Assembly: GCA_965644265.1 (NCBI GenBank) | Contig: OZ286468.1 | Location: 14,136,001-14,200,000 of the forward strand | From: Glycera tridactyla | Lineage: Eukaryota | Length of the DNA stretch: 64,000 nucleotides | Reading direction: 5' to 3' | Shown: positions 8,701-42,507 of the stretch, piece by piece | Layout: the number at the start of each line of letters is the position of its first letter | Position numbering within the stretch: the stretch's first letter is position 1 | Program-made: the position numbers and the translations under genes | The notes under the pieces: model-generated | Told to the model about the DNA's origin: nothing | Seen by the model: the letters and a program-made list of their open reading frames with translations, nothing else | The model's database searches: none

Positions 8701-8797
8701 GGGCATACCACCCAATGAACACATGGATACCCTAGACATGCCCTAGACATGAGTCTTGAATGATCCCACGTAAGTCCATTTCATGGGTGTCTCAATA

Positions 8798-15782: not shown

Positions 15783-15785
<3 letters not shown>

Positions 15786-15848
<63 letters not shown>
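15786..15848. repeat. (GT)n microsatellite
   Basis: Direct reading. Confidence 0.95.
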
Positions 15849-15849
<1 letters not shown>

Positions 15850-18484: not shown

Positions 18485-18485
<1 letters not shown>

Positions 18486-19540: not shown

Positions 19541-21299
19541 TTCTGGTGGGCCGGATGCTTTCCCGGGCGTGGTGAGCGAGAGATAACACCCAGTGCCGGG
19601 TCCAGTGCTCTTTCAAATGTAAACACGGCAACATCAACAGTCTATCCTAGAGAAACAACACTACAGTCTGCTCATTGTAAGGAGGCCACAGTATCCATTC
19701 CGTAGGCGAATGGGCATGAACTTGAGTGTCGCCAGTATTCGCTCTGACTCATGCCCGAGTGGGGACATTCGTCCCATCTATTTTCAAAAGCAGGGACAAC
19801 AATCTCAGCACCAGTGTCATAGAATTCGATCTAGATGGAGATCGATTTTGTGCTGAAACAAAGATCATACCTGAAGTACAAGGTTGATTGAATAAGGGGT
19901 AATGTCATGAGTACTAAATCAAATGGACAGAGCTCTCTTACTGAGGTAAAAACGAAAACGCTACTGGCCTGGTTGGTTGTCGGAGTGCAGCACTCCTGGC
20001 GCACCAGTAGGTACAAAAAGGGCCACATATCCTAATTTTGTGACATTTGACGCAGCCTAGAACAAACACCATCAGCCTTCACCTAGTTAGTAGTCACATT
20101 GTTACATAGTTGGATCTGCCATCCACAGGTACATAAAATCATTGCATGTAGGTCGATGTGTGTCTGAACCGGCAGCCACTTTCTTTCGACAATCTGTCTT
20201 GAGTAAAAGCATCTTGCATTTTGGGTTTGTGAGAGTGGTCGCTACTCGGGACAGCGCATTCAGTTTTACACATATCAGTAAAACGTACACGATCGTTTGA
20301 ATTGATACATGCCTCTGTGGCTCGGCACCATTTCATATTCAGTGGCTCTGGGGGTAGTGTGATACCAGTCGGGGACAATGCAGCGGGTCTGTATAGGTTT
20401 AGAACACCCGATGGACTCACCCTAATAATTTAGATAACAGTAATAATATATTGCCACGCCATTCCTACAGATATGTTTATGTTATAATAGATGGGTAGAG
20501 GCGTGTCTGACCTTCCAGCCACCTCTACTTGACATCCCTTCTGGTCTCTTTCATCCTACGTTCAGGGTTTGTGATAGCTGTAGCTGCAGGGACAGAGAAA
20601 GCCAGCATTCACAAATCAGGAAGATACACCATACATGATTCTTTGAGTTGGCCCATGACGTTCATCCCCAACCATCCAACCAACCAAACAACCAGCCAGT
20701 AAGCCAGCCAGCAAATCAACCAGCCAGCCAGCCAGCAAACCAACCAACCAGCCACTAAACCAACCAACCAACCAACCAACCAACCCTCCTACCATAGATG
20801 GAGGAGACGCTCATACTTTGCCCAACCCAGCGACCATTTCATTGAGTTGTATGAAAACCATAGTAGCACTCCAATAATTAGTGAAATGTAAACGAATTAC
20901 GGTGCGTTCCAGCAACACTGATCTTGACACGATGGAATGTGAATCACAAATCTCCTGTCACCGTGGACTACTGTAGCTATACATATACACGCTTGCTTAT
21001 CAACCCTTTCAAGGTGAGAGGTAGATATTTACTGTGTATATAAGGCATTCCCCATTTGACTGGTTTATCGAGTCCTTTAAGTCGGTGGCTATTCGGACCC
21101 ATCTTATTTCAACTTTCTTTATTTGTTCGAGTTCAAAGTCCTTCTAACCTCTTTGGGTCATACCGGACTGAAAAAGTGGCTGAAGGGAGGCACTGCTGCC
21201 GGGGTCGATCCCCTACTTTCTGCGAAGGATAACAGTGGATCTTTTACGTGTGTACAGGAATAGACTCCCATACACACGTAAACTATAGGTTGTTTATTA

Positions 21300-21544
21300 A
21301 GTAGTATTATATGGGTGCCTATGGCCGCCTCAAGTTCTGTGCAGATAAATAATAATAATGTGACAGCTGGATAATAAAAAATGATTAAAAACCCTATATT
21401 TGAACGGATCTGGGGCGGCCATAGGTCCCCATATCAATAACTTGTCATCATATTTCTCTTGGAATTGACATTTATCATCTATTAAATCAACTGAAGAAAC
21501 CATTTATTTCTATTTTCACTCCAAGTTCTGTGCAGATAAATCAT
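21300..21544 (+). repeat. Left terminal inverted repeat of the Maverick
   Basis: Reverse complement of 42194-42438 with roughly 8-9 differences; outer about 70 bp identical. Confidence 0.95.
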
Positions 21545-22017
21545 CATAATGTGACAGCGCTTGATGGAACTCAGCATTCACAGGTGAGCACACTCATATC
21601 AGCATCTTGTCATCATATATCTTCACTATCTCACCTACTAACTCAGCTATTACTCTCTGCAGATTTAGTATATGCAGATGTAGTATATATTTGACCATGA
21701 TTCTCCTGCTGCTAATCTTTCCTTCTCTTCTTCTGACCTATATCTCTGACCTATATCTCCTAGCATATGCCAGATAAATATGAGTATCATAGCTTGCTTC
21801 ACCTCAAACCAATACTGACATTTCTCATCATGAGACTGGTATCCACATGGGATTGACGTTAAATTCCGTTTGGTTGGATGGATAGAGATTTTTCTATTAT
21901 GGAGACGATTTACATCAGTGTGAGCTCGAGATATTGATATTGAAAAAAGTTGACTTTCTACTATCATTTTGTGGATGTACTATCATTCTAGGAACATTTT
22001 GTGGATGGAACTTTTTC

Positions 22018-22284
22018 ATGGATCGATTTCTCGCACCGCCTTTACCCTACTCTATTGCTGAACTTCGCCAACAGAAACAATTCTTCATTCGCATATCTGA
22101 CGATCTCTATCTGAAAGTGAGGAATAAAAAACAATCTTGCCTAATTCTGTTCTATTACCAGAACAAAAAATCTTTCTCAATACCCTATTCATTATTTCTG
22201 GAAGTTTTGAACTCATACGAAACAGTCAAACTAGCAGCTGATCTTATCCAAGGTACATTATTTACTGATCAAGATGGATCTTGA
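22018..22284 (+). CDS. Maverick small hypothetical protein (88 aa), possibly PC4-like beta-sheet/helix fold
   Basis: First ATG of ORF 21934-22284; overlaps the pPolB start by 11 nt. Fold guess from hydrophobic pattern only. Confidence 0.55.
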   Translation: MDRFLAPPLPYSIAELRQQKQFFIRISDDLYLKVRNKKQSCLILFYYQNKKSFSIPYSLFLEVLNSYETVKLAADLIQGTLFTDQDGS

Positions 22285-25200
22285 TTCTGTCTTCATTCAG
22301 CTTCTCAACAGTTTCCATTCAGCTACAGAGTTAGAGGAATGGGCTAGGACAAACAATCTACTGAATGATCCACAGGTTCAGGCAAGACTTAGACGATTTC
22401 GCCAAGCTGATGAAGATGATATTGACACTCTATATACTGCTATCAACTCTAATCACATGACCACTCAACCCATTCAGCAACAACCAAGGAGTACGAATTT
22501 GAATACCTATCCTTCTACCTCACATCAGAGTACTCAGTCCATATCTCATCCTGATTGGCACCAGCCAGGGAATACAAATCTGGATAACTATTGTTTTACC
22601 TCACATCACAGTAATCATCCAACTCGGTCAACTTCACATCAGGAATATACTTGCAAACAATGTAAAAAACATTTTGCCAGCAAATTCTCCTTGTGCAGAC
22701 ATGAAAAAAAATGTAAAGCAGAGAGTTTTGTCTGCCCCTTGTGCGGGAAGCAATACTCACAAGCGCCATCATTCAACAGACATAAACAGCTTTGTAAAGG
22801 ATACCCATGTTCTCTCTGCAATTCATCCTTCTCTTCATCTTCAGAACTAGACTCACACAGAAAACATTCACATCCGCATGTTTCGCAAAATTGTCCTTAT
22901 AGTTGTAGAGATTGTGGATCAGGACATAATAATCTCAGATCTTTATATCTACACAGATCAGTACAACATGGTGGTGCAGATAACCTTCAAGCTGAACCAT
23001 GGGATGAAGGTCCATGGATTGAAAATGGCCAGGTTATTGATCGAGATTTGAAGGAAGTGTACACTAGGAACCGCGAGCATATTTTGCGATCTCATAGAGA
23101 CACTGCTCACACTACTGTCTATAATTTTCCAACAAATAATTTGCAAGGAGGTATAGATTGGTTTATGGAACAACTTCAGTTCATTTTTCAGCAGCAACAT
23201 AATGCATTCAGAGTTAACATCTCTTTCGGAATGATATTGCGAAATTTAACTGCTGAAGACGGTCAGAATAGGTATAGATATTTCATACCATTCAAGAATA
23301 ATAACCTATTCACTCATCCAGTATACATTTCACGACGCAGAGATTTACGTAATATTCGTAACAGATTAGAAGCGTTGGATATAAATAACTATGTCAATGA
23401 AGAGAGACAAGACTCAAAATGGCGTCTATTCATGATTGTTAATGTGAATTTCGTCACTTATCGAACATACTACCCATTGGGTCAAGGTATCTTACCAAAT
23501 TTTATTCGAGAGCGAAAATGTATAGTGACTCTTGACAAGAGTCGGGCAGGAATTCCTTATAAAGATAATTTGTGCATCTTCCGTTGTCTCGCTACACATA
23601 AGAAAGCTAAAGCCATGTCTGCAACAGTGAATAACTATTATTCAAAGTGGAGAGCATACATTGCTTCTACCACTGGCAAAACTATTCCACTACATTCCAA
23701 GGATTATGAAGGTATCACATTCGACCTTTTGCCAGATTTTGAAAATTGTTTCAAAATCAATCTGCATGTGTATGAATTATTAGAAAATGGGTGCGTTGTC
23801 AATAGATTCCTTTCGTTGTCTGATTACCAAGATGAAATATATCTGAATTTCTATGATCATCATTTGTCATATATAAAGAATTTTGACACATATGCTCAAA
23901 AATTTCAATGTCCGATGTGCGAGAGACATTTTCTCAGAGCGTGGAATCTCAAACGACATTTGAGAGTCTGTTCCAATGTCACCAAACTTGTTTTTCCAGG
24001 AGGTTTGTATTCAAACTTCAAAACAATATTTGATGAATTGGAAGAGTATGATATCATTGTAGATTCCAGTAGAAGATTTTATGACTGGTTCATAGTGTAT
24101 GACTTGGAAGCCATTCTCATGAAGAGTGATGCAGTTGGAACAGAGAAATTGAAATGGAATAACGAACATAAACCGATTTCTATCAGCATAGCAGCAAACA
24201 CTGATGATCATAGAAAAGCGGTTTGCATTGTTGATCCTGACTTGGAATCACTGCTAGAAAAAGCAGTGGACTATTTCACTTCAGTTGCTGCACACATACA
24301 AGCACTAGCACACGAGAAATGGTCTGACATTTTTGAAATATTAGATGCTAATATTGATAAATGGAAATCTTCAAAAAAGACCAAAAAACACAAGCGTAAT
24401 CATTCAGGTTTTGTGCTTGAGTGTGCAGCTGTTGATGATGAATCTGATGATTATGATTCTGACATCTCAGACGACTTAGACGAAGACATTGACGATAATA
24501 ATGACCATAGTTGGAAAAACCAAAAGCGAGATGAAATCAGTAGCTCAAAGAAAATGTACAATAATTTGAGAAAACTCAGACAGAAATTTGAGTTATATTG
24601 CAACCAAGTTCCGGTGCTAGGGTTCAATTCTGCACGATATGACTTGAATTTGATCAAAGGTGCCTTTATTAGACATTTGAATTATTTACATTCGCAGAAC
24701 AAATTTGTAGTAAAAAAAAATGCGGCATATGCTTGCATTGCTACTGACAATTTTCGCTTTCTTGACATCTCCCACTACCTTGCACCATGTTGTAGTTATG
24801 CTCAATTTCTTAGAGCATTTGAGGTACAAGAGAACAAATCTTTCTTCCCATATGAATGGTTTGACCATCCAGACAAATTGAACTATAACTCTCTACCTCC
24901 ATATGACTCCTTTTTCTCATCATTGAAAGGTCTGAATGTTCTTGACTCTGATTTTTTTCACTGGGATGGGACAGGACAAAGACCTATGTCTGGTCAAGAA
25001 AATTATGAAGCCCTACTCCAAATATGGCAGGAAAAAAATATGCAGTCCATGCAAGATTTTCTCATATATTATAACAATTTGGATGTTGAACCCTTTGTTT
25101 CTGCTGTCGAAAACATGCAAGCTTTCTATCGAGAGAAATATATAGACCTATTCAAGACAGCAATCTCAGTGCCAGGAATTGCAAGACAATTACTATTCCA

Positions 25201-27607
25201 GACAGCCAAACAGTCCGGGGTCACTTTCTCAGTTTTTGGGAGAGAGGATGAAGATTTATATCGGACCGTGAAAGCAAATATTGTCGGTGGACCCTCTATT
25301 ATCTTCACAAGACACCATAAAACTGGTGAAACCAAGATACGAGGTGGCAAACTGTGTAAATCAATCCTCGGTTTTGATGCGAATGCTCTATATCTCTGGT
25401 CACTCGGTCAACCAATGCCCACAGGAAGTTATGTTCGTAGATCACGTGATGACAACTTCAAACCTATTTTTTCAATGAAGTATGTCGCCATGTTTCATTG
25501 GATGGACTACCTCAATATGACTAAGGTAGCTGACATTAAACATAAGATGAATAATGGAAGAGAGAAAAGGATAGGACCCTATTTTGTTGATGGATATGAT
25601 TCCAACACTAGCACCATTTATGAATACCATGGCTGCTATTTTCATGGACATGAATGCATGAAACATATGAAGGATGGTGAGAGAAAAGAACGTTATGACA
25701 GAACACAAAAGCGGAAACAATTTTTGATGGATCTTGGGTATAATGTTATTGAAAAATGGGAGTGCGAATTTCAAAATGAAGTCAAACGCAATCATCAATT
25801 AAAATCCCTAATTGATGAATCTCTCCCTCCTTTTGCCAGACAACATTGGTTTCCAGTTGCTGAAAGAGAAATTCTTGACGCAGTTGAACAAGGTCGTCTC
25901 TTTGGAATGGTGGAGGTTGATATCAGAGTCCCAGATAAATGGAATACCCACAGAAGATTCCATTTACCGCCACAGGATTATTTCAGTGAGATGTCACCCA
26001 TATTTTGTACGACAGACATTTCATTCGAGTCCATAGGAAGTCACATGCAAGAACACATCCAGGACCACAAGTTGAGTGATAAACCACGTCGTTTATTGGT
26101 AGGAGGAACAAAGGCCAAAAAAATTCTCCTTGCAACTCCTTTATTGAAATGGTATTTGAAACATGGAATGGAGGTGACATATATATATCAAGTCATTGAA
26201 TTCAGTCCTAATAACTGTTTCAAAGATTTTGAAAATAAAGTGAGTGATGCTCGCCGTCTTGGAGATGAAGATCCTAGGAAAGCAATAATTGCAGATTCCA
26301 TGAAGCTGATAGGGAATTCTGGTTATGGATCTCTGATTATGGATAAAGAGAAGCATCAAAATGTAGAATACGTTGAAGATGAATCAACTTTGATCCATAA
26401 AATCAATGATCCTCGCTTCAAAAAGATGACTGATCTCAGTGAAAATTTCTATGAGCTTGAGATGTCAAAAAAAAAATTGAAGCTTGACCTCCCTATCCAG
26501 CTCGGATATTTTGTACTGCAATATGCGAAACTCATGATGTTGTCTTTCTACTACGATTTTATGGATGTTTATGTCGACAGGAATGACTTTGAATACATAG
26601 AGATGGATACAGATTCTGCTTATATGGCAATATCTGCTGACAAATTTGAAGATGTCATCAAACCCTCTTACTGTGATCAGTATATGGACTCCATGAAAAA
26701 TCGATGTGATGACAACACCTTCCATCCAGATATGTATAAGAACTGGTTTCCTCGCACTTGTTGTGATAAACACAATAAATTTGATAAGAGAACACCGGGT
26801 TTATTCAAAGAAGAAGCCCGAGGTGATGAGATGATTGCACTGAGCTCCAAAACATACATCCTCAAGCAGGGATCCAATTGTAAGATGAGTTGCAAAGGGG
26901 TCAATAAATCTCAGGTCATTGATCCAATGAAAACATTTGAGCGTGTTCTTCGTGATCATAACCCTGTCACCACTGTTAACAGAGGATTCAGACCTAAAAA
27001 TAATACCATATTTACCTATGAACAGAAAAAAAATGGTTTCACATATCTCTACTGTAAGCGGATAGTGAGTGATGATGGAATACACACTACTCCACTTGAT
27101 ATCACTCTGTCCCCTTTCAAGGAGAGGAATATTCTACTGATTGATGAAAACCATCCATTATCACTCACATCAACTTGTGCTTTATCACATGATGGAGTGG
27201 TGTTCACAAGCATGCGTCATCTTTATGAATATTGTAAAGCGATTCATCATGATAATTTATTGGAAGGGCAAAGTATAATAGATAGAACAATCAATTCAAA
27301 ATCATTGCAAGATGTCACACCCTATGAATCAGATCGATGGATGTCGGAGAAAGAATCTATCATGTTCAATATTGCAAAAATGAGATGCAATCAGAGTTCG
27401 GAAATACAACAGATATTACAATCCAGTGGAGAAAAATCTTTTATTTATGCTATTTCCACAGATATGTATTGGGGATGCGGTTTTAATGAAAAAATTGCTC
27501 TGACCCGAGATCCGGATTCTCATCCCGGTGCAAACAGACTCTCATCAATCTGGATAAAAGTGAGACAAACTCTCAATCAATCCTCTATTTCTCACTGTCT
27601 AACATGA
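22274..27607 (+). CDS. pPolB: Protein-primed family B DNA polymerase (1777 aa) with N-terminal C2H2-type zinc fingers, a Vsr-like nuclease insert and a C-terminal NADAR-like domain
   Basis: Exo I YDLE, Exo II FNSARYD, Exo III YNNLD; polymerase motifs FDANALY, KLIGNSGYG, MDTDS. Four zinc fingers at about 22646-22970; insert VDGYD..YEYHGCYFHGH..KWECE at about 25568-25770. Confidence 0.95.
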   Translation: MDLDSVFIQLLNSFHSATELEEWARTNNLLNDPQVQARLRRFRQADEDDIDTLYTAINSNHMTTQPIQQQPRSTNLNTYPSTSHQSTQSISHPDWHQPGNTNLDNYCFTSHHSNHPTRSTSHQEYTCKQCKKHFASKFSLCRHEKKCKAESFVCPLCGKQYSQAPSFNRHKQLCKGYPCSLCNSSFSSSSELDSHRKHSHPHVSQNCPYSCRDCGSGHNNLRSLYLHRSVQHGGADNLQAEPWDEGPWIENGQVIDRDLKEVYTRNREHILRSHRDTAHTTVYNFPTNNLQGGIDWFMEQLQFIFQQQHNAFRVNISFGMILRNLTAEDGQNRYRYFIPFKNNNLFTHPVYISRRRDLRNIRNRLEALDINNYVNEERQDSKWRLFMIVNVNFVTYRTYYPLGQGILPNFIRERKCIVTLDKSRAGIPYKDNLCIFRCLATHKKAKAMSATVNNYYSKWRAYIASTTGKTIPLHSKDYEGITFDLLPDFENCFKINLHVYELLENGCVVNRFLSLSDYQDEIYLNFYDHHLSYIKNFDTYAQKFQCPMCERHFLRAWNLKRHLRVCSNVTKLVFPGGLYSNFKTIFDELEEYDIIVDSSRRFYDWFIVYDLEAILMKSDAVGTEKLKWNNEHKPISISIAANTDDHRKAVCIVDPDLESLLEKAVDYFTSVAAHIQALAHEKWSDIFEILDANIDKWKSSKKTKKHKRNHSGFVLECAAVDDESDDYDSDISDDLDEDIDDNNDHSWKNQKRDEISSSKKMYNNLRKLRQKFELYCNQVPVLGFNSARYDLNLIKGAFIRHLNYLHSQNKFVVKKNAAYACIATDNFRFLDISHYLAPCCSYAQFLRAFEVQENKSFFPYEWFDHPDKLNYNSLPPYDSFFSSLKGLNVLDSDFFHWDGTGQRPMSGQENYEALLQIWQEKNMQSMQDFLIYYNNLDVEPFVSAVENMQAFYREKYIDLFKTAISVPGIARQLLFQTAKQSGVTFSVFGREDEDLYRTVKANIVGGPSIIFTRHHKTGETKIRGGKLCKSILGFDANALYLWSLGQPMPTGSYVRRSRDDNFKPIFSMKYVAMFHWMDYLNMTKVADIKHKMNNGREKRIGPYFVDGYDSNTSTIYEYHGCYFHGHECMKHMKDGERKERYDRTQKRKQFLMDLGYNVIEKWECEFQNEVKRNHQLKSLIDESLPPFARQHWFPVAEREILDAVEQGRLFGMVEVDIRVPDKWNTHRRFHLPPQDYFSEMSPIFCTTDISFESIGSHMQEHIQDHKLSDKPRRLLVGGTKAKKILLATPLLKWYLKHGMEVTYIYQVIEFSPNNCFKDFENKVSDARRLGDEDPRKAIIADSMKLIGNSGYGSLIMDKEKHQNVEYVEDESTLIHKINDPRFKKMTDLSENFYELEMSKKKLKLDLPIQLGYFVLQYAKLMMLSFYYDFMDVYVDRNDFEYIEMDTDSAYMAISADKFEDVIKPSYCDQYMDSMKNRCDDNTFHPDMYKNWFPRTCCDKHNKFDKRTPGLFKEEARGDEMIALSSKTYILKQGSNCKMSCKGVNKSQVIDPMKTFERVLRDHNPVTTVNRGFRPKNNTIFTYEQKKNGFTYLYCKRIVSDDGIHTTPLDITLSPFKERNILLIDENHPLSLTSTCALSHDGVVFTSMRHLYEYCKAIHHDNLLEGQSIIDRTINSKSLQDVTPYESDRWMSEKESIMFNIAKMRCNQSSEIQQILQSSGEKSFIYAISTDMYWGCGFNEKIALTRDPDSHPGANRLSSIWIKVRQTLNQSSISHCLT

Positions 27608-27610
27608 AGG

Positions 27611-27814
27611 ATGGACATATCTCCATCCATGAAAAAACAAGTTTCATTTTCTATGAACGTGACACTATATTACATGCACACTTGGAAATTTGCATATAGA
27701 CAAGCAAGGATAAGTGATTGGCAGAAGACGTATCTTGATCGACTACGATTCGAAGATAGAATACGAAAGAGTGAATCTCTTCTATCTACAGTTCTGAGAG
27801 CTGGAATGAAATGA
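27611..27814 (+). CDS. GADD34/PPP1R15 C-terminal-like (ICP34.5/DP71L-type) PP1-eIF2alpha adaptor, 67 aa
   Basis: QVSFSMNVTLYYMHTWKFAYRQARISDWQKTYLDRLRFEDRI aligns without gaps to GADD34 [42 protein letters not shown]. Confidence 0.8.
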   Translation: MDISPSMKKQVSFSMNVTLYYMHTWKFAYRQARISDWQKTYLDRLRFEDRIRKSESLLSTVLRAGMK

Positions 27815-28443
27815 TGTATCCATTCAACCCCTGTACAACCATGGTTTTGAGTGGGACAACCGGTTCTGGAAAAACTAGTTGGATTCGTAATTTACTTCAA
27901 AATAGAGACTCCATGTTTCTCAATCTACCACCAGATGGAATACTTTACTGTTATTCAATATGGCAGCCAATATTCGATGACATGGAACAATTAGGAATTG
28001 AATTTCATTTAGGGATTCCAGGCGAGGACTATATTGACACATTCAGACAAAACCGCAAACATACAGTCATAGTGCTTGATGATTTGATGGATCAGATCAA
28101 ACAAAGTCCTGAGGTGGAAAGTTTATTCACACGTGGTTCACACCATAAACAATTAACCATTATATATTTGAATCAAAATTTGTTTTCTCAGGGAAAGTGT
28201 AGTCGGACCATAAATCTCAATGCGCATTATATAACTATTTTCAAGTCTTCTGATATCCATCAAATTCAGATACTAGGAAAACAGATGGGAATATGTAGAA
28301 CAATAGCAGAAGCATACAAAGATTGTATGCAAGATCAGTATGGTTATCTCATTATTGATCGATCACCGTCGGCTACACCATCACACATACTCAGAACGAA
28401 GATATTTCCCGGAGAAGATTGTATCATATATCAACCTATATAA
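27811..28443 (+). CDS. A32/FtsK-like DNA packaging ATPase
   Basis: Walker A SGTTGSGKT, Walker B VIVLDDLM, motif C TIIYLNQNLF. Confidence 0.92.
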   Translation: MMYPFNPCTTMVLSGTTGSGKTSWIRNLLQNRDSMFLNLPPDGILYCYSIWQPIFDDMEQLGIEFHLGIPGEDYIDTFRQNRKHTVIVLDDLMDQIKQSPEVESLFTRGSHHKQLTIIYLNQNLFSQGKCSRTINLNAHYITIFKSSDIHQIQILGKQMGICRTIAEAYKDCMQDQYGYLIIDRSPSATPSHILRTKIFPGEDCIIYQPI

Positions 28444-28478
28444 TTTGTTTGATCAGCTATCCATGGACAGTTCTCACC

Positions 28479-28787
28479 ATGAGTAAGGCGCTACAACAAG
28501 TAGAGGATTTTTTGGTGTTATTGCTGTCCACATCCAATTTTCAAGGAAGAGTACTATTGGAAACTGCAACACCGGACCAGGTACTTGCCATTCAGGAAAT
28601 AGTAGCAAATCTATTGGAGTCTAAGTCAAAACTATCACAAAATGTTAGAGTCTTATTGAATAAGAGAGACCGAGCTCTGAAAAAGATTGTGAACAAAGCT
28701 AACCCCGCTGTCACTATAGCTTCTCATTCTCGTCTTCTACTCGATACATTACTTGCAGTGAAAAGCTTGATTCTCTTTCAATTATGA
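28479..28787 (+). CDS. Maverick conserved hypothetical helical protein (102 aa)
   Basis: Open frame from ATG 28479 within the packed core block; LL..A...QV.AI.EI..NLL pattern resembles small Maverick core proteins. Confidence 0.7.
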   Translation: MSKALQQVEDFLVLLLSTSNFQGRVLLETATPDQVLAIQEIVANLLESKSKLSQNVRVLLNKRDRALKKIVNKANPAVTIASHSRLLLDTLLAVKSLILFQL

Positions 28788-29431
28788 AATTCACTCGTAA
28801 GATGGTGCTGATTCCTCATGAACGTTACAGGGCTCTCACAATGAATCGGCAGAATATAGAGAAAGATCCATCAATGGAAAAAGATTCAGTCGTTCCTTCA
28901 AGCCTTGACCATACATCATCTGAAAATATGGAAATTGAGGAACTAATAGACGTACCAGAAAACAGTATGAATGAGGAAACAATTCTGTCTTTACTTCCAA
29001 GAAAGTACAGAAGCAAAGGATCGATTCTACTCAATCAATTAAAAAAAGTCATGTCATGGAACAAAAATGGAGCAGTAACAATTAATGGGGAAGAGATTGC
29101 AGATTCACATATCACTGACCTGATAAAAGATGTTTTATCTCCATTCACTCTCAAGCATGCTTTGATTGGAATTGATAAATTCCGATCTTGTATGAAACTA
29201 TGTGGAATCCCGAAATCATTCTTATCTCATAAAATTCAGGATGGGAATGGAAATAAGAGGAAACCCCCTCCAGGTATACCACCTGAGCATAAGAAAGAAA
29301 GAAAACTTGAAGATGCAGACACAAATTTGCAAAAACCGCCCAAATATCAACTAGAAGATAAAAAAAAGAAGCGGGTATATAACAAGACTGCTAAAAAGTT
29401 TGCAAACATACAATGGCAGCAACTTATTTAG
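28784..29431 (+). CDS. Maverick conserved hypothetical protein (215 aa)
   Basis: KMVLIP N-terminus and WNKNGAVTINGEEIADSHITDLI motif typical of a Maverick core gene; basic C-terminus. Confidence 0.75.
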   Translation: MKFTRKMVLIPHERYRALTMNRQNIEKDPSMEKDSVVPSSLDHTSSENMEIEELIDVPENSMNEETILSLLPRKYRSKGSILLNQLKKVMSWNKNGAVTINGEEIADSHITDLIKDVLSPFTLKHALIGIDKFRSCMKLCGIPKSFLSHKIQDGNGNKRKPPPGIPPEHKKERKLEDADTNLQKPPKYQLEDKKKKRVYNKTAKKFANIQWQQLI

Positions 29432-30519: not shown

Positions 30520-30549
30520 TCTATACCAAGAAAGTCATTCCATGTCAGG

Positions 30550-32584: not shown

Positions 32585-33051
32585 ATAACGTTCAGTTGAC
32601 TCATTTTTTAATGAAAAATCAATATACTCATAAATATTTCATGGGAGTGTTTTCTGCTGATACTTTGCCGGGTTCCATCCCAAGAAAACCCGCTTTTCTG
32701 ATTGTGAATACAGCGAAACAAAAAGAGGAGGGTCGACACTGGATCTGTCTTTTCTTTCCTAGACAAGGTCCAAGTGAATGCTTTGACTCTCTCGCTAGGA
32801 ATTCCACTCAATTCGAACGATTTCTATTGAAACAATCATCTACCTGTCTTCACAATCTACTCAGGTTACAACAATCGGGAACTAATACATGTGGACTATT
32901 TTGTATCCAATTTGCTGTAAATAGATGCAAAGGTGTTACTTTCTCTGATTTTTTATCTTTTTTTCGAGGAAGAAGTCTGACTGAAAACGAGAAAATAATC
33001 AAACATTTGACATGGCCAATCTTGCTAATTTCAGATTCCTGCTCGGTATGA
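32581..33051 (+). CDS. Adenain-like cysteine protease
   Basis: GRHW (His), CFDS (Asp), LQQ...TCGLFC (Gln/Cys) catalytic motifs. Confidence 0.9.
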   Translation: MNNVQLTHFLMKNQYTHKYFMGVFSADTLPGSIPRKPAFLIVNTAKQKEEGRHWICLFFPRQGPSECFDSLARNSTQFERFLLKQSSTCLHNLLRLQQSGTNTCGLFCIQFAVNRCKGVTFSDFLSFFRGRSLTENEKIIKHLTWPILLISDSCSV

Positions 33052-33353
33052 AATTACGTCGAGTCTATGATTTCTTGGTGAAATGTGTTTGTTCTGTGAA
33101 AACACAGCCAGGAGAAATGACAGGAATGGAACTGGAACTTCATATAGTCAAGAGCCAGCTTGCAAGTTATCAAAGGAGAGAAATGGAGTATTATAATTTC
33201 CGTAAAAAGCTTACAATGCAGAATCGTCAAAAAGAATGGCTTCAAAAGCAGGATGAAGATAACTATTATGAATGTGTAGAATGTGGAACTTTAATCCCCA
33301 AATTCGAAATGAGCAGTGATGAAGGGGAGGACTATGATACAATTGATGGATAA
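33048..33353 (+). CDS. Small hypothetical protein (101 aa) with coiled-coil and CxxC motif
   Basis: ATG overlaps the protease stop (ATGA); YECVECG; AATAAA follows at 33451. Confidence 0.6.
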   Translation: MKLRRVYDFLVKCVCSVKTQPGEMTGMELELHIVKSQLASYQRREMEYYNFRKKLTMQNRQKEWLQKQDEDNYYECVECGTLIPKFEMSSDEGEDYDTIDG

Positions 33354-33450
33354 AGTTTGCATTGATGGCGTATTGTTGTACTGATGTATTGATGACATAT
33401 TGCTGTACTGATGTAGTGTTGTATTACTGTATTGGTGAGATGGATCATGT

Positions 33451-33456
33451 AATAAA
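33451..33456 (+). terminator. Candidate polyadenylation signal closing the core gene block
   Basis: AATAAA about 100 nt after the last core ORF, followed by T-rich sequence. Confidence 0.5.
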
Positions 33457-34284
33457 AAAAAAAGTATTGAAGTGAAAAAAAAAGTTTGTCTTTTGTTTCT
33501 ATCTATTCAATGGCATAATAAGTAAGATGATAGCATCAAATGAGTCGGTTTCCATAACTAGGGCGAATCTTGCCAAATATTGTCTTCAAGGGAGCTGGAA
33601 TGGGAATTCACCAAGGCGAGTTCATTTATAGCTAGGTGGGATTATTTATAGACAGGCGGAGTTATTTATAGACAGGCGGGTTTATTTATAGCTACCGCGT
33701 CAAAATCAACGCTATTTATAACTCGCTGTCAGTAGTGCGCACGATAGCATCCGCATGGATGCCGCGGTAAGAGGACGTGGATTTCTTGTCACGAGCATGA
33801 AACCAGATTCATTCTATGAGAGATATATTCCGTATGCATGTGAAAGAACCATCACTATCTTTCACAAAAGAAGGGATTGATCAAGAAAGCGTGTGTATGG
33901 GGATATAAGCCATATCCATTTGAAAGAATCATCACCACTCTGTAAAGAGAAGTGATTGATCCCGGGAACACTGCATCTTCCTCAGTCTTTTCAAGAATGA
34001 TGAGCTGAAAAGAGAAGGGATTGACCCCAGCAGTGCTGGTTCTTCCTCATTCTTTTCAAGAACGATAAACTGAAACATACAAATTGAGAGATATATGCGG
34101 GAGAAAATGTCAGTCTTATAATGTTAATCTAGAATAAATATCCTCAGAATAATAAGAAAGACGGAACCACTTGATAAAACTAATGAAATATAGGCAATAA
34201 AAGAATACCATGAAGATATGAGCGGTGAAATATCTCGCTATTTTTTTTTCCCACGGATCAAGACTGTGGACCTCCAGCATTGTT

Positions 34285-34425
34285 CGAAAGCGCGAAACTA
34301 TAGGCGCGCCACAAGAAGAGCACTAAAAAAGGCGCTAAAAAAAGGCGCTAAAAGAAGGCGCTGAAAGAAGGCGCCAACTTTAGGTTATATAAGGAAGAAA
34401 TCTTAATTTGACCGCTGTCATTTGT
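34285..34425 (+). promoter_or_regulatory. Candidate Pol II promoter inside the Maverick
   Basis: GCGCGAAA (E2F-type, about 34290), four AAGGCGC repeats (34325-34375), TATATAAG at 34386-34393 and TCATTT initiator-like site about 30 nt downstream. Confidence 0.5.
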
Positions 34426-34449
34426 GATCGAATCACTGAAACGGTCGAG

Positions 34450-34597
34450 ATGAAGCGATGTCAGCGGAATAGGCACTGTTTGTGCCACGAGTGTATGGAT
34501 GGATTACACATGTATTGCCCTAATCGTGGTCCGAAACCTGGATCAGAACTCAGTTTGGTCGTGGGATTGAAAATTGGAACCATCTATGCAAATACAG
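34450..34597 (+). CDS. Predicted exon 1 of Maverick spliced membrane protein (Cys/His-rich)
   Basis: ATG 34450 just after TATA/Inr; MKRCQRNRHCLCHECMDGLHMYCP...; phase-1 donor ACAG|GTTAGT. Confidence 0.4.
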
Positions 34598-35342
34598 GTT
34601 AGTTGATTGTTCTTTCATTATGATTAATTGATAGAAAGATAGGAAGGCAGACAGACGCACACACAGGCATTGAAAATTGGAACCAAGTATGTGAATACCG
34701 GTTAGATGATTGTTCTTTGATCATGATTAATTTATAAACAGATAGGTAGGCAGACAGACACACAGACGCATTCAGACAGATGGATAGACATGCACACGGA
34801 TGCACATGGACGCGCACATACAGACAGATATGTAGAATAATGCTTACTCAGTTTTGATAGATGCACATACAGACAGACACACGGACACATTCAGACAGAT
34901 GGATAAACATGCACCCGGATGCACACGGACGTACACACAGACAGATACGTAGAGTAATGCTTATTCAGTTTTGTCTGTTACCAAGATCATGAATCCAAAA
35001 TACATTTCAAGTGAAAAACATGTCTATTTTTGAATATATTCTGTGTGATTCTGTAAGAACCATCGCTTTCCTTCGCAAGAAGAATGGATTGATCCATTTT
35101 TGTCACCTCCGCTATCAGATTAAGGAGTAGTCATATATCCAGACATGAAGTCATTAGATTCAATTTGTTCGTGTCAAGGAGGTATAGACATGTCTGAACT
35201 GACAAATACATCGACTCAACTTTCTTTCTGGTTCCTATCATATTATATTCAGAGTTTGAGTGAGTGACATATATACGATCAGAACATTTAGTTGATCAAA
35301 TTCAACTGCAATCAGTAATGAATTCTTTTGTTTTCAATATAG

Positions 35343-35561
35343 ATATATGTGAGAGAGAGGATGTCACTACAACACAAAGATTGAACAGAGGTGGAAGACT
35401 ACTTGATGGGCCTGACGGTTTGCTTGCCACCTCATCTGATGGACTTCCGATTGATTCGGTGACTGGAATTTCAGCCGGAACCATAACAGCTGCATCAACT
35501 ATCCCAATGATCATAATCATTCTGATGATTATCAGCGCCTTCTTTCTGATCAAACATCATG
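35343..35561 (+). CDS. Predicted exon 2 (transmembrane segment)
   Basis: Acceptor TTCTTTTGTTTTCAATATAG|, phase 1; encodes IPMIIIILMIISAFFLI; strong donor CATG|GTGAGT, phase 1. Confidence 0.6.
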
Positions 35562-35998
35562 GTGAGTTCCATTTATTTGAATCACATTTTGGTGAATAAT
35601 ATTCAAAGGATGAAATTCATGTAGAATATTCAATTCTTCTTCATTATCACATACAAATTTTTCATTATCACACTTAGTGAATGTGAAAAAGTATATTTGG
35701 TGAAGGGAAAAAGCATACCTGGTGAACGGAAAAGTATACTTGATGATTGGAAAAAAACACATGAGGAAGAATCCAATGTATTTTGAATGTAAATTTTTCA
35801 TCAACATATTTTGAAAAATGACAACAATTGTTTTCATTTATGCATACATCTCGAATGAAAAAAACACCTTGGTTCATCATTCCATCAAACATCAATTTGA
35901 TTAATACATAAGATTTAGTGGAAACAACCCAGCGCTGATATCTAATTGGAATTTGGAATTTACAGAATTTTTGATGAAGTGTATGTTCGCTGTTTCAG

Positions 35999-37512
35999 TT
36001 CATGTGAATTTCGGGAGAATGGGGAATATCGTGTCCTCGCATCTACCACGAATTCCGAGACGGTCGATTCATCCAGCCCCGCCAGGAGGGATAAGACGCC
36101 CGCTTCCACGTCTGCCGCCACCGACTCGCCCCCCTCCCCCACGTGTCGATGGTCTACCACCACTCCCGCCACCAACACGTGTAGACGGTCTACCGCCACT
36201 CCCGCCGCCAAGAAAGAAACCAAGACCCCCACCAGTTCGCGCCCTACCTCCACAGAAACACGGACTACCCCTACTCCCACCGTTAATGCCAAAACCGCTT
36301 GATCATCCAGGTCAAATAGCTGCATCGCTAGCTGAACTAGGTGACGTTGTTGGAGCTACCAAAATAATACACCCACATGTTCCGTCCATTCCCCGACTCC
36401 CCAGGCAGTATGAGCCTGGACCTGCGCGTGGTCTAGCAATTGCTCTAGGCGAATTGGGTCGATATCATACACCGTCCTTGGTATCCCATGGAGATAGCGG
36501 AATGAGCCCAATATCAGATTCCGATCATGTAGTGCATTCAGTACCCTCGCCTAGTTTGCTGACAGAAAATTCCTCGGACTACTATCCTGATCGTTCCTCG
36601 GACTACTATTATGATCGTTCCTCAACCCAGTATCATGATCTACCGGTTCCATCTCCACGTACAGTTTTACCATCACCTGAAGAGAGTTTTGAAGAGAGAG
36701 TGGCTAGGTGGCGCTTCGATCCACCTTCAAATGCTACTTCTGATCATGATCATGATCATGATCATGATCATGATCATGATCATGACTATGAGCAGGTGGA
36801 TAGTGTAACTGAATCAGTCCAAGATACGGTAGATGAGGTCTACAAAATGTATGAAGATTCTGACTCAGATTGGGATTATGAGATTGATAGTATTTATGAA
36901 GAACTGAATATGTTGGATAATGACTTACATGGTGTGAACTATAATGACTCTGATGATGATGATTGGATTACTCCTTCAGAAGATGACAATGTGAGTTGTA
37001 GCTATCCAGATGAGGAAGGTTTGGAGAGAACTGGTCAGTTTGATGAGGGAGAGGGTGCGGAGGTGGTGAGTGGACAGATCGATGAGGGAGAGGGTGCGGA
37101 GGTTGAGAGTGGTCAGTTTGGTGAGGGAAAGGGTGCGGAGGTGATGAGTGGTCGGTTTGATGAGGTAGGTGGGGGAGAGGATTCGGTGCAGGAAGTGAGT
37201 GGTCAAGATGAGAATGTAGAGGAGGCGAGTGGTCAGATCAGAGAGGGAGGTAGCGAAAATCATCAGGATGGTGGGGAAGAGGATCCGGAGGCGAGTGGTC
37301 ATATTGGTGGGGAAGAGGATCCGGAGGCGAGTGGTCATATTGGTGGGGAAGAGGATCCGGAGGCGAGTGGTCATATTGGTGGGGAAGAGGATCCGGAGGC
37401 GAGTGGTCATATTAGTGAGGGAGGTAGCAGTGCTCATCATCCACCAGCTTCCTTCATTTCACTCAGACGTCGTGAAGTTGAAAGAGTGGTCAAATTGAAA
37501 AAGAAGAAGTGA
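35999..37512 (+). CDS. Predicted exon 3: Pro-rich, (DH)n and acidic repeat tail (most of ORF 35953-37512)
   Basis: Acceptor GTTTCAG| in the phase matching exon 2; about 504 open codons; four perfect 36-bp repeats at 37270-37413; basic end KLKKKK. Confidence 0.65.
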
Positions 37513-38528
37513 AGGAAGCTGGTGAACATCCAAATCAATACTTTTTGATATTTAGTCTCAGTATTTTCTCAGTCAGTCTCACTTATTTTAGTTTCAATCT
37601 GAATTGAAATAGTTTACTGTGGTTGTATTAGGGAAGAGTCAGTTTTTAAATTTTCCATTGCATGGTCAGTTTCTGAACTGTGGTCGCTTTATAGAGGAGT
37701 CTGTCCATAGCCGGTAGTGAGTAATAAAATCTCTCATATTCCTCACAACTCCAATGCAGTAGTAGAGACTGTGAAAACTTTCACATCTCATAGATTCCAA
37801 AATGATGGTAGTCATTTTATGGATCTACTGAACTCTAGCATATGGTTACTGTCATCTTTCGGTTGTATTAGGGAGGTGTCCACTTTAAAATTTTCCATCC
37901 ACCACTCACTCTATCTCATTTTTTAAAGTTGGAACGTAAATCTAACTACACATAATTTTGCGCGGTATATGAGACTGAGAAAACCGCTAACTGGCACAAC
38001 TCATAGAGTTCAATTTATGAAGGTGGTCATTTTATGAAGGTGATCATTTTATGCATGTCTACTCCACCACACATTCATGGGAGATACATAAGATCCATTC
38101 AGATCAAGATGTTGATATCATATAGTTTGATAGATGGATGTTCTGAAGGTGGTCGTATCATGAAGGTGGTCGTATCATGAAGGCGTTCACATATATTTTG
38201 ACGGAAATGTTCTTGCCCTAATATTCTATATTGTTGGATGTGCTTGTATCATGGATGGATTTCAAAATAAAAACCCATTACTTGACAATACAGTATTTGT
38301 ATCGAATCCTGTTTCAACTGAAAATGTGATTTTGACCTCATTCTCTGTGACTAGTTCTGACACACTCGCGCATCGAATTTTTATTGTTCATCAAGACAAG
38401 GGGGAGGGTCATCAATTAAGGACTGCAGGTCAGGGAGGATCATCATTTATGACCTGCAGGATGGGAGGGACATCAATTATGGACTGTGAAACAGCTAGTA
38501 GACTGTTTCTATACTTAAATATTTCTGG

Positions 38529-38903
38529 ACATCTTCTGCATAAGCCTGGATCTGATATCGCCCTTTTTCTGGTGGAAAAAAGGGATCTACCGATTCCAAC
38601 CTTACCCCGGTCACACCACGAGGAGGTAGATGTCATATGACCATCTAACCTTTTGAATAGTCGTAAATTGACTATGATTGGTCAAATAAAACTAAGAATA
38701 ATGTAGTTTTATGAAGAGTATTATAATTTGAACATCTTCTGCATAAGCTTGGATTTGACAGTTTCCCTTTGTAGTGGTAATAAGGGATTCTATCGGTTCC
38801 AACCTTACCCCGGTCACACCGCGAGGAGGTAGATGTCATATGACCGTCTAACCTTTTTGAATAGTCACAAAAATGACTAAAATTGTCCGAATGAAGCTAA
38901 GAA
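38529..38903. repeat. Diverged tandem duplication (about 203-bp period) within the Maverick
   Basis: ACATCTTCTGCATAAGC...CCAACCTTACCCCGGTCACACC.CGAGGAGGTAGATGTCATATGACC present from 38529 and 38732. Confidence 0.85.
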
Positions 38904-39503
38904 AGTGTGTTTTGGATTTTATTTTTTTATAATTTTTTTTTTCTTATTTTATAGGAACACTTCAATTCTGAATAGATATTCATTGTCAATGATAAAAGAT
39001 CGCTCACTCGATCAAACTAAGATTGGTGCTTTTCGGATTGGTATTCAACCAATGAACAAGATCAAACTCGATATTTCTGTTCGGATACCCGTCCGGGTTC
39101 AATCCTTTTCCTGTGACGTTGATACATACTCATATCGAGTTGAATTGTCTGCTTGGACTCTCATCAAGTAAAGATCATGCACGACTGTGCAGAGCAAGGT
39201 TCAAAGCACTGCAAATATATCATCACCACATGTCATTGAAAACGTCTGCTTGAACTCCTGTCCAGGAAAGTTCCTCTTACGTTGATGCAGACAGAGTGAA
39301 AATGACTTGTGAACCAAATATATTGTAAGTGATCAGTCTAATTTCATTGCGATGGATGAACATTAAGAAATAAAGTGTTCCATTTTATAATTTTTTTCGT
39401 GGGTAATGTATCCTCTCGATACTTAAATGATTCAAACTGAGTATTGAGAGAATGCAGAACCAAATTAATGAAATAACGATAATTTCGACACTGCATTGCA
39501 CTG

Positions 39504-39914
39504 TTATATGAAATGGAAAATGAAATGTTCCATACAAATTGCACCAAGACGAATTCTACCGACACTATCCCACCAATGAAATGAGATTTTTGGAATGAGT
39601 CCGGTATCGGGGCTGGCTATAGCGTCCAGATAGGTATCCTGAGCGTTAGACGTGTCCATCCCATCTGCGAAGGTCGAGCGATACTCTAAGACTTTGATTA
39701 ATATTCTCAGACCGCGAATATAGGCCGTGAATGTAAAGTCAAAGTCTGAGGTAAACAAACCACGTCTGCAGATAGGGCAAGAATTGTGTCCTTCATTAAC
39801 CATCTGGATTAGGCATGTGATACAAGAAAAGTGGTTGCATGATGGTAAACGAGGAAATAAGTCGTTATTCCGAAATTCGTAGCAAATGATACACTCCGAA
39901 TAAATTTCCGACAT
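39504..39914 (-). CDS. C3HC4 RING-finger protein (putative E3 ubiquitin ligase), 136 aa
   Basis: CIIC-x14-CNH-x2-CITC-x11-CPIC has canonical RING spacing. Confidence 0.8.
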   Translation of the reverse strand: MSEIYSECIICYEFRNNDLFPRLPSCNHFSCITCLIQMVNEGHNSCPICRRGLFTSDFDFTFTAYIRGLRILIKVLEYRSTFADGMDTSNAQDTYLDAIASPDTGLIPKISFHWWDSVGRIRLGAICMEHFIFHFI

Positions 39915-40177
39915 TTTAGATCTGGTGTGTATGGTGTGAAATATAACAGTGCAATGTAGCCTACAGATAGAATACCATCACCATCACCATCAAAGGGGGG
40001 TGGTGTGGAGGAGGGTTGTAGTGACCACCCTCAGATTCATCCAATCATAGGTTCCATAGGGAACAACCATAGCGTCCACCCACGATATGGAATATGGAAC
40101 TTGATTTATAGTCCACCATTTCCTCACGATATATATTATTCAGAATGGTGTCTGACCAGAAATTCAAGATGAAATGG

Positions 40178-41260
40178 TCAGAATTGATCTGTGAATCCAA
40201 ATGGGGAACATTCCTTGCAAGAAATGAATCCCATCTCATTATTGTGTGTTTCACAACAAGAAATGATATTGGATGATGGAGAGAAATTCTCCATCTCTGC
40301 AACCGCGTGTTTGAATTTGTCAAATTCAATGAATTTGAAAGCGATGTTTGGTCTGCCAAATTTAGATGGAGCACCAACTGGAGCATCTCTCTCTAGATAT
40401 CGCTTATGGATAGAAACACAGTACAGACCAGTCTTCACCTCAACATAGAAGGCTGCTCCGAGGTGGATCCTCAAACTTTCTGTTTCGTTGCGTTTCACAC
40501 GTTCAACTGCTTCACTAATTCTGTCCAAATTGGAAATCAGCAGCTTCCATCGACTCTGTGAGAGTACGACTGTTCTACCGTCGATGTCATTTCCATAGTC
40601 TGTTTTCAAAGCAAGCTTGTAATATTCTTCGTCGGACGAAATTGTGAATCGTCTGCCATATCCGACATCTCTCAGGAAAAATGATGTTGGAAATACATTC
40701 AGTTGAACTGAAGCTGGTCTCTCAGCCTGGCCGTTCAGTGCTGAATTGCTAGCAGCGGCAGTAGCATTAGCAAAGTTGGATGATGGTGGAATTGAGTTGG
40801 CGATAGATGGAAGTGTGATCCCATTCTCCATACACTTCTGAGTAGGAACGAATAGTGACTGGCTTTCTTCAACTTGATCTTCACTACTTTTACTCAGAGA
40901 ACACTCAATGTTAAATGTAGATTCTGATATGGCAGGTTTTTTTAGTCCATCAGCAGCATCACAGTGTGAAGATTGGTCTTTGGTGATTTGAGATGGAGTA
41001 GTGTCAATAGTATTATCTACGCGCTCAATATTCACCAAGGTGACAGAATCTGAAGAGTTGTCTTCATTGATTATAATCGCAGAATCAGAAGTCGGAGGAG
41101 AAATTTGTCCATTCTGTCCTCCATAGTACGAGAACTGGCGGAGAAAGTTGGGACGATAATCCAAACGGGATGGAACTGCTTCAGCTTGATCTTGTCCGTA
41201 TCTTTCCTTCTTCTCAGGAACTGGTGTTGTAGCAGAATGATTTCGCTTTCCACGATGCAT
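40178..41260 (-). CDS. PC4-like ssDNA-binding protein (360 aa) with N-terminal NLS-like and low-complexity region and C-terminal Cys/His cluster
   Basis: RIHLGAAFYVEV...CVSIHKRY...NIAFKFIEFDKF resembles PC4-fold repeats; ends CCETHNNEMGFISCKECSPFG; TATAAA on the minus strand near 41375. Confidence 0.65.
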   Translation of the reverse strand: MHRGKRNHSATTPVPEKKERYGQDQAEAVPSRLDYRPNFLRQFSYYGGQNGQISPPTSDSAIIINEDNSSDSVTLVNIERVDNTIDTTPSQITKDQSSHCDAADGLKKPAISESTFNIECSLSKSSEDQVEESQSLFVPTQKCMENGITLPSIANSIPPSSNFANATAAASNSALNGQAERPASVQLNVFPTSFFLRDVGYGRRFTISSDEEYYKLALKTDYGNDIDGRTVVLSQSRWKLLISNLDRISEAVERVKRNETESLRIHLGAAFYVEVKTGLYCVSIHKRYLERDAPVGAPSKFGRPNIAFKFIEFDKFKHAVAEMENFSPSSNIISCCETHNNEMGFISCKECSPFGFTDQF

Positions 41261-42193
41261 TTTTCTCTTCCGGAGGAAAAATGGAAACAGGAAACTAGAC
41301 GGAAACTGGTGAAGAGTAATCTCTGTCTCTGCTGTAGATATTAGAGGAGTGGGAATAGTGATCCGATGTATGCGGTTTATATGTGCTAGAGCTTAAAATA
41401 AAACGTCAGTCATTGGCAAAATGGGAGGAGGGGGGTGGAGTGGTCATTTCTCATGAAGACTAGTGGAAATTTCCATCAGGTAGGATCGATTCAGTTTACA
41501 TTAGATGAATGCTTGTAATGCATATTGGATCGAGAGCAGAGTAAGTATTTCTTGATCAGACAGGACCGATTCACATCCTCATAGGTATCGACTTATGATA
41601 TATATATATATATATTGAAACGGATTTTTCTATTAACTATATTAGTTGGATCTATCAATATATGGAGGTTCAATTCAGTATTCGTCTTATTATAGTGATC
41701 TGAAGACATTATTTATTGAATCAATAGTGAAAATGTCCCCTGACCTGATGAGGATACAATCACAGTTGGATTTCTCGGTCAGGAAATGTAGCGTGATTAA
41801 ATATGGTAATGGGCACATGAGTGGACGAGGGAGGTAGACATGGGGGGTGAATTGAAGAGGGATATGTGACTAACCCGAGGAGGACCAATCACAGCAGGAT
41901 AAGTCAGCCATATTGCATCTGATAAGATACGGATTAGGTTGATGCAACAATCAACTGGCAGGGTATGGAAGTCTACACATTCTTGGGTACGCATTCAATT
42001 TAGAGGAGGCAGGTGGTTAGTCTATTTGATCCAGAAAACTATTCACTCAATTATAGAGCAGAATGAGACGGATCCAAGCAGCAGATGTTCAATAACGTGA
42101 GGGAAAATGGGATATAGTAAGAGGAATAAGATGTCATCTTAATGGAGTGGAAACCTGTACCCATCCAGAATCTCGTCAAATATCGAATTTTAC

Positions 42194-42438
42194 ATGATTT
42201 ATCTGCACAGAACTTGGTGTGAAAATAGAAATAAATGGATTTCTAGGTTGATTTAATAGATGATAAATGTCAATTCCAAGAGAAATATGATGACAAGTTA
42301 TTGATATGGGGGCCTATGGCCGCCCCAGATCCGTTCAAATATAGAGGTTTTAATTATTTTTTATTATCCAGCTGTCACATTATTATTATTTATCTGCACA
42401 GAACTTGAGGCGGCCATAGGCACCCATATAATACTACT
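42194..42438 (-). repeat. Right terminal inverted repeat of the Maverick
   Basis: Ends ...ATAATACTACT followed by TTATTA. Confidence 0.95.
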
Positions 42439-42507
42439 TTATTATTTGACCAATCACGTAATCAACAGGTTCACACAGTGGTCAACACATCGTGATCGTT
42501 TGAAGGG

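Follow-up and report, generated by a model that had tools for sequence, protein, structure and literature searches.

The question raised by this locus is whether a Maverick (Polinton) element lying within a 64,000-nucleotide window of the Glycera tridactyla genome (assembly GCA_965644265.1, contig OZ286468.1, positions 14,136,001 to 14,200,000 of the forward strand; hereafter the window, to which coordinates refer) is a recent and intact insertion, as an initial annotation of the sequence had proposed. The element spans 21300-42438 (21,139 bp), begins with AGTAGT and ends with ACTACT, and in our assessment is probably a provirus of young age with intact coding capacity, belonging to a Polinton family of mollusc type (polintovirus, Beta-adintovirus-like) that was still replicating in recent times. 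Its ends are as follows:

21294-21299, no strand: left target-site duplication (TSD), TTATTA
21300-21544, + strand: left terminal inverted repeat (TIR), 245 bp, starting with AGTAGT
42194-42438, - strand: right TIR, ending with ACTACT
42439-42444, no strand: right TSD, TTATTA

The ends had been annotated as exact, and the coordinates of both the AGTAGT/ACTACT termini and the TTATTA duplications confirmed this; with flank composition considered, the probability of a chance 6-mer match on the two sides of the element was ~4e-4. The TIRs were identical at 235 of 245 positions (95.9%), in agreement with the ~96% claimed for them, with 4 of the 10 mismatches falling within the outer 192 bp and 6 within the inner 53 bp. 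The inner differences recur in a public run (X1, described below), and therefore the 96% identity is unusable as a clock; dating by TIR mismatches was dropped for this reason and because the outer ones may represent collapsed bubbles. Each TIR contains two exact copies of one 18-bp word, with a spacing of 191 bp (21333-21350 and 21524-21541, mirrored at 42197-42214 and 42388-42405; chance expectation 0), to which proteins of replication or integration might bind. The element is free of N, and every Maverick/Polinton hallmark that could be tested was present, namely TIRs with doubled AGT/ACT, a 6-bp TSD, protein-primed DNA polymerase B (pPolB), rve integrase, ATPase, C5 protease and capsid proteins. 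Termini, TSD and gene set thus agree on the annotated Polinton identity.

Eleven consecutive + strand open reading frames (ORFs) are open between 22274 and 33353, or twelve if an ORF of 88 amino acids (aa) at 22018 is counted:

22018-22284, + strand: 88-aa ORF, no convincing match
22274-27607, + strand: pPolB, 1777 aa, with C2H2 fingers and exonuclease and polymerase motifs
27611-27814, + strand: predicted 67-aa PP1 recruiter of PPP1R15/GADD34/DP71L type, with V11-x-F13, RQAR, W37, DRxRF and LSTVL
27811-28443, + strand: A32/FtsK-type packaging ATPase (PF04665, E 5e-6), Walker A and B present
28479-28787, + strand: 102-aa ORF in the position of a 113-aa ORF of Polinton L001, similarity undetectable
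28784-29431, + strand: 215-aa ORF in the position of a 127-aa ORF of L001
29413-30519, + strand: rve integrase with chromodomain (PF00665, E 3e-12), D-D-E motifs present
30550-30981, + strand: minor capsid (penton) protein, short 143-aa form, from position and L001 similarity
30978-31322, + strand: 114-aa basic protein, from position and composition
31319-32584, + strand: major capsid protein, 421-aa ORF, from relatives and predicted fold
32581-33051, + strand: adenain-type (C5) maturation protease (PF00770, E 3e-6), His, Asp, Gln and Cys motifs present
33012-33353, + strand: 113-aa ORF with one CxxC

The ORFs of this block abut or overlap, with 4-nt overlaps at five junctions. All eleven ORFs annotated as core genes were indeed open and consecutive; the label itself held for six of them, the others being the PP1 recruiter and four ORFs (102, 215, 114 and 113 aa) with no assigned homologue. 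The small ORFs between ATPase and integrase showed no similarity to their positional equivalents in L001, and the 88-aa ORF, considered as a second PC4-like gene, was rejected for lack of similarity to that of L001. By position and composition the 114-aa basic protein is likely a virion core protein.

The annotated completeness of the virion gene set was borne out by agreement among domain matches, capsid fold and penton comparison. The major capsid protein had 43 relatives, most of them 409-463 aa long and covering 94-100% of the query (those with names coming from bivalves), and its model (predicted local distance difference test score, pLDDT, 86.6) best matched the double jelly-roll capsids of the chlorella virus PBCV-1, iridovirus, Sputnik and mavirus (E 2e-15 to 1e-11); a scan of viral contigs with this protein as single query gave no match. 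Capsid assignments in Polintons were established previously (PMC4028283). The 143-aa penton protein matched its positional equivalent in L001 at E 5e-10, with both ends aligning and the ~110-aa central insertion of the L001 protein absent. Its look-alikes were Atlas clusters of 139-148 aa (0.97-0.98) and Sputnik V18/19 (0.93), and since both ends align and the look-alike clusters have about this length the penton protein is probably not truncated. The six recognised core proteins (polymerase, ATPase, integrase, protease, major and minor capsid protein) thus look full-length, catalytic motifs are kept in all four enzymes, and the virion set is complete within what the sequences allow one to judge.

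The polymerase places the element within the family. It had 771 relatives, many with PF03175, among which the closest named ones were from molluscs; Pfam gave no match on the polymerase core of the element's own protein, in which the motifs are nonetheless present. Among 305 alignment columns that do not vary across 7 close relatives, the element's pPolB agrees at 295, with one 5-aa gap; this falls within the 87-99% obtained for the relatives themselves in the same leave-one-out test. At ~aa 1118-1165 there is a Vsr-like insert, for which the only PDB matches were Vsr (E 0.05-0.09) and TIGR00632 matched at E 0.001, weakly but consistently; some pPolB relatives bear the name Vsr endonuclease. 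Such an insert is taken to mark a pPolB2 subgroup of marine molluscs and nematodes (PMC10748475), and from the insert and the best matches, without a tree, the element appears to group with the mollusc-type, Vsr-bearing pPolB Polintons. The best matches by themselves would point to a mollusc or a comparable marine invertebrate as the probable host. NADAR, which had been listed among the cargo genes, turned out to be a degenerate C-terminal domain of this polymerase (aa 1638-1767), annotated on 17 of the 120 closest pPolB relatives. An active NADAR needs the Glu of S-x-E-H plus a second acidic residue (PMC11543638). When aligned to YbiA, the element's pPolB has Arg and Tyr at the two catalytic-acid columns, so that both acids of an active hydrolase are gone, and among relatives an acid occupies these columns in 5 of 21 and 1 of 21, respectively. 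The domain thus probably serves in binding and does not act as an ADP-ribose hydrolase, and is probably an old, non-catalytic, clade-wide appendage of the polymerase.

The eIF2-alpha rescue gene of the initial annotation was supported at the level of sequence, and the 67-aa ORF, placed between polymerase and ATPase inside the block of overlapping ORFs, is a predicted DP71L/GADD34-type PP1 recruiter. All five PDB matches of the protein were PPP1R15A, PPP1R15B or DP71L of African swine fever virus (ASFV), and a profile of the protein with 31 short relatives returned six PDB matches, every one of them PPP1R15A/B or DP71L (E 2e-13 to 5e-6). PF10488 was matched by 19 of the 32 aligned proteins at E<=0.01, the element's own not among them, and at E<=0.001 the protein had 322 relatives, a large number of which are standalone proteins 60-85 aa long. 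The motif set of PPP1R15, DP71L and ICP34.5 is present (RVxF, Arg, W..DRxRF and the C-terminal LSxVL helix), with V-x-F and LSTVL corresponding to V16/F18 and LSAVL of DP71L. In DP71L, V16/F18 and the LSAVL leucines are necessary for eIF2-alpha dephosphorylation, the C-terminal helix serving this step rather than PP1 binding (PMC5346070). No match was obtained with the 67-aa protein in a word-index search or, as single query, in a scan of viral contigs. Among 73 loci with the motif pattern, 35 matched the recruiter profile, and three of these also matched core genes of the element; two of the three are one element, so two other, distant Polintons carry a recruiter (72 and 60 aa):

L022, 7950-8168: predicted PP1 recruiter
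L070, 2020-2265: predicted PP1 recruiter, same element as L022
L046, 1204-1386: predicted PP1 recruiter

The layout of these elements includes a PLA2-like ORF, which we read as pointing to the other main Polinton group. Because L022 (=L070) and L046 also carry one, the predicted recruiter is recurrent in Polintons. Among the papers listed by literature searches, we found none pairing polinton or adintovirus with GADD34, DP71L, ICP34.5 or PPP1R15, although figures or supplements may already label such a gene, and none was found in the available portions of PMC11131425, 10.1101/2023.10.16.562556 and PMC11071308. Baculoviruses carry one such gene (PMC5704228).

Age and copy state were assessed from public runs, of which four (X1-X4) among 19 listed contained at least half of the sampled words of the element; their contigs were compared on 21001-41000, a stretch that leaves out the last 1.4 kb of the element. 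Smaller shares of the element's words were present in X7, X8 and X9, and 10 added runs with the same label held next to none, which is no proof of absence. X1, a run of 318,374 records averaging ~62 nt (19.9 million letters in all), contains the element unspliced and with frames intact, in five long pieces at a depth of 14-18. Along a contig of 15,308 nt from this run, 13 letters and 3 gap letters set it apart from the window (99.9% identity), with the gaps outside ORFs and no stop gained; this identity supports the recent insertion that had been claimed, and reads disrupting the ORFs, which would have told against it, were not seen in the X1 form. Among 9 coding differences that separate the window from X1 as well as from a sister run, 6 were synonymous, with 2.6 expected (p=0.02; 36 of 40 difference rows listed, out of 115); such an excess looks like the mark of selection acting while the element replicated and not of decay once it had inserted. 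Two contigs of X3 have foreign sequence adjoining 21300, and the family therefore has at least one further insertion site. Among the contigs listed none spanned an empty site, which is no evidence either way. Some X1 contigs match only short parts of the integrase (29905-29939 and 30445-30482) and are unlike it beyond, as more distant family members in the same sample. A depth spike at ~38917-38950 was a T-run artefact.

The remaining three runs, from two studies, bear on the cargo of the right arm:

35318-35561, + strand: membrane-protein exon 1, one hydrophobic helix; the unspliced ORF (93 aa) extends to 35599
35562-35998, + strand: 437-nt GT..AG intron with GTGAGT and TTTCAG ends, skipped in X2, X3 and X4 contigs
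35999-37512, + strand: membrane-protein exon 2, Pro-rich, 15 PxxP, Tyr-bearing, acidic tail, 36- and 39-bp repeats
39504-39914, - strand: C3HC4 RING protein, 136 aa (domain match E 2e-6)
40178-41260, - strand: 360-aa protein with a C-terminal PC4-like domain and a Cys/His motif, common to L001

X2, X3 and X4 each have a contig skipping 35562-35998, a skip absent from the X1 contigs, and the joint fuses the 93-aa hydrophobic ORF in frame to a 512-aa ORF, giving a protein of 585 aa with one membrane helix at ~residues 60-78, a proline-rich stretch (15 PxxP, 15 tyrosines) and an acidic tail. We take this layout to be that of a membrane signalling adaptor, and an internal Met of exon 2 at 36019 begins MGxxxS, presumably a myristoylation-type start. 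The spliced protein is probably a signalling adaptor or decoy, and the splice joint lends the annotated membrane adaptor its support. These runs show a sister form ~0.5-0.9% away from the element, with, among other changes, 17 gap letters close to where the polymerase ends and a gap of 1 nt close to where the adaptor does; 5 of its 14 listed coding changes were synonymous (3.9 expected), as under neutral decay. Because the sister contigs also bridge non-coding parts, they suggest read-through transcription of a dead copy, the runs being RNA-like and not on record as RNA.

Several points weigh against an intact provirus with an eIF2-alpha rescue gene. All three runs with the splice joint carry the sister letters: their integrase has a gap of 4 nt, one of 61 nt covers the start of the capsid gene and the protease contains a stop, so that the joint appears to attest a broken, older sister copy, not the copy in the window. 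No RNA evidence for the intact form was found in the runs compared; as contigs drop rare variants, it may still be expressed. The synonymous test covers 9 sites only and takes its polarity from one sister lineage. The 67-aa ORF alone scores under the Pfam PP1c_bdg cut-off (12.2 vs 26.1 bits) and deviates at two positions from the published eIF2-alpha-binding consensus (PMC5346070). The penton model has a pLDDT of 52.9 and its jelly-roll matches fail to single out pentons, and for the four small ORFs without homologue truncation cannot be judged.

We nevertheless favour a young, coding-intact provirus, and its life cycle can be sketched conditionally. From what is known of the family, pPolB would copy a linear genome starting at the TIR ends, the integrase would insert it and make the 6-bp duplication, and particle assembly could proceed with ATPase, protease and both capsid proteins. 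The motifs of the 67-aa protein suggest that it would bring host PP1 to phospho-eIF2-alpha and reverse a stress- or PKR-type shut-off; dephosphorylation would let translation go on while late genes are made, a role that fits because the recruiter ORF sits between polymerase and ATPase in the block of overlapping ORFs. The form seen in the spliced, RNA-like runs would be an older broken sister copy.

The pattern in X1 fits either a many-copy burst of near-identical insertions or free linear DNA. In a stronger form of the provirus reading, the family replicated in the X1 animal in the form of free linear DNA, perhaps within particles, with the window copy as one integrant; we hold this only tentatively, short of calling it probable. 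It is consistent with the five long, deep pieces that so sparse a run nonetheless holds, with a TIR contig that begins exactly at 21300, and with the absence of any listed contig joining the element to a flank or crossing the left end of the compared stretch. On the assumption that X1 represents whole-genome DNA at low pass, from a genome taken to be 0.5-3 Gb in size, the element would be 50-130x over-represented, and a similar pattern was interpreted as a free-ended virus in a midge data set (PMC8502044). On the other hand, at least 50 dispersed near-identical insertions would yield the same contig graph, each junction being too rare to assemble; no library type is recorded for X1, depth does not equal copy number, and flank links were judged among the contigs listed, which leave aside 271 pieces and 11 loose ends. 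TIR depth was dropped as a sign of free ends, since a collapsed two-arm repeat without free ends should give 25, near the 20 seen.

Copy number alone would also account for the over-representation if the element were a self-synthesising transposon confined to the genome and had multiplied there in a recent burst, with capsid genes and cargo carried along and no particles made. The lack of RNA evidence for the intact form is in keeping with such a burst, as is the statement in the abstract of PMC8097293 that no Maverick particles have been observed. Against it, capsid, penton, ATPase and protease are open and full-length at 27-41% identity to most relatives, which needs long-term selection, and genes of this set decay in the broken sister. 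We regard a purely intragenomic element as unlikely.

It is quite improbable, in our view, that the cargo serves no counter-defence, with the PP1-binding gene and the right-arm ORFs being captured host fragments or put to some other use, such as another PP1 substrate. This possibility draws on a NADAR without catalytic acids, on a right arm (33.4-42.2 kb) that is gene-poor and repeat-rich, and on a RING protein and adaptor without a tested homologue of known role. It sits poorly with a gene pared to a minimal 60-72-aa viral format both here and in the distant L022 (=L070) and L046, and with a recruiter that retains the C-terminal helix DP71L needs for eIF2-alpha dephosphorylation (PMC5346070). 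The coherent counter-defence toolkit of the annotation survives in part: one of its genes is well supported and one plausible, two fail to carry the claim, and no evidence links the four items into one system. Its RING member stands as far as the domain match goes, that match being its whole support. The 360-aa protein is more likely a single-strand DNA-binding protein or transcription helper; its PC4 domain gave only spurious zinc-finger matches against PDB.

Finally, an assembly product, in which a collapsed majority sequence of several copies sits between the true flanks of one, possibly damaged, insertion, would suit the 5 N-runs of 128-185 nt elsewhere in the window (as in short-read scaffolds) and the existence of near-identical sister sequences, but is very improbable, because the element is N-free, its TSDs match, and 13 sites in 15.3 kb distinguish the window from the X1 majority path (at 10 of these it departs from the sister runs as well), so that it is not the X1 majority sequence.

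Other features of the window were noted alongside the provirus. No second Maverick remnant lies within the window, and Rfam gave 0 matches across 20-44 kb. Copies of a short interspersed repeat, 71-90% alike, occur on both sides of the element (21114-21278, 42513-42723, 17687-17902 and 11343-11545); interruption of one such copy by the element was ruled out, as each flank has a copy of its own and not half of a shared one. Tandem units of 92 bp at 18485-19539, with an inverted partner at 18485-18651, are possibly a miniature inverted-repeat transposable element or a minisatellite. Inside the element, the ORF-free stretch from the core block to the membrane-protein gene contains tandem repeats of 20, 65, 103 and 119 bp (33614-33691, 33940-34075 and 34566-34973), which could be promoter or enhancer repeats. 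A Gypsy-like long terminal repeat retroelement at 57385-63998 (- strand) leaves the window, with its integrase end at 63018-63998; its open 1086-aa envelope ORF matches baculovirus F (E 6e-7), and a 449-aa low-complexity ORF on the opposite strand (60853-62202) sits between these two parts. In L002, a Polinton-like contig, ORFs at 8708-9906 and 15607-16035 beside the capsid gene presumably encode TFIIB-, TBP- and dUTPase-like proteins.

Intact Mavericks are already known, and it is the cargo that is new. Among vertebrates, 134 intact elements of 12.7-24.6 kb in 17 species (Barreat and Katzourakis 2021, PMC8097293), a range that includes the size of the present element, share with it open core ORFs, TIRs, a 6-bp TSD and doubled AGT/ACT ends; compared with what is described there, the present element stands out by its invertebrate host lineage, by core genes that all lie on the same strand, and by a spliced accessory gene and a PP1 recruiter. 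The pPolB2 Polintons of marine molluscs and nematodes (Jeong et al. 2023, PMC10748475) likewise have a Vsr-like insert in pPolB, whereas a C-terminal NADAR, a PP1 recruiter and PC4 go unmentioned in the available text (0 occurrences of NADAR, phosphatase and PC4). Beta-type adintoviruses (Starrett et al. 2021, PMC8502044) have the same order of ATPase, two small ORFs, integrase, penton, basic ORF, capsid and protease, as does L001, and offer a precedent for apparently free-ended majority sequences; phosphatase, eIF2 and NADAR are absent from the main text of that report, and phosphatase, PP1, GADD, PC4, NADAR and ICP34 from one supplement. With ASFV DP71L, herpes simplex virus ICP34.5 and cellular GADD34/CReP (PMC5346070) the element shares a minimal module for binding PP1 and eIF2-alpha (67 aa vs 71 aa in DP71L); here the activity is predicted and the carrier is a 21-kb integrating element, not a large DNA virus. 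What is distinctive is the DP71L-type gene, the spliced accessory gene and a run with an over-represented, near-identical form and a clean end.

Whether animal Mavericks are viruses or transposons is still debated, and intact copies alone are insufficient to settle the matter. A translation-rescue gene such as lytic DNA viruses carry would be needed by a replicating virus and hardly by a quiet transposon. At its fullest, and here we judge the odds to be low, the reading would be that of an integrating virus, live in a mollusc-like animal and caught in one sample both as provirus and as amplified free linear DNA, cancelling the eIF2-alpha shut-off through a DP71L-type recruiter, with escape from the integrated stress response general in animal Polintons. 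If this is true, stress-response escape by a minimal recruiter would be a general and unreported feature of animal Polintons and a sign of lytic-type gene programmes.

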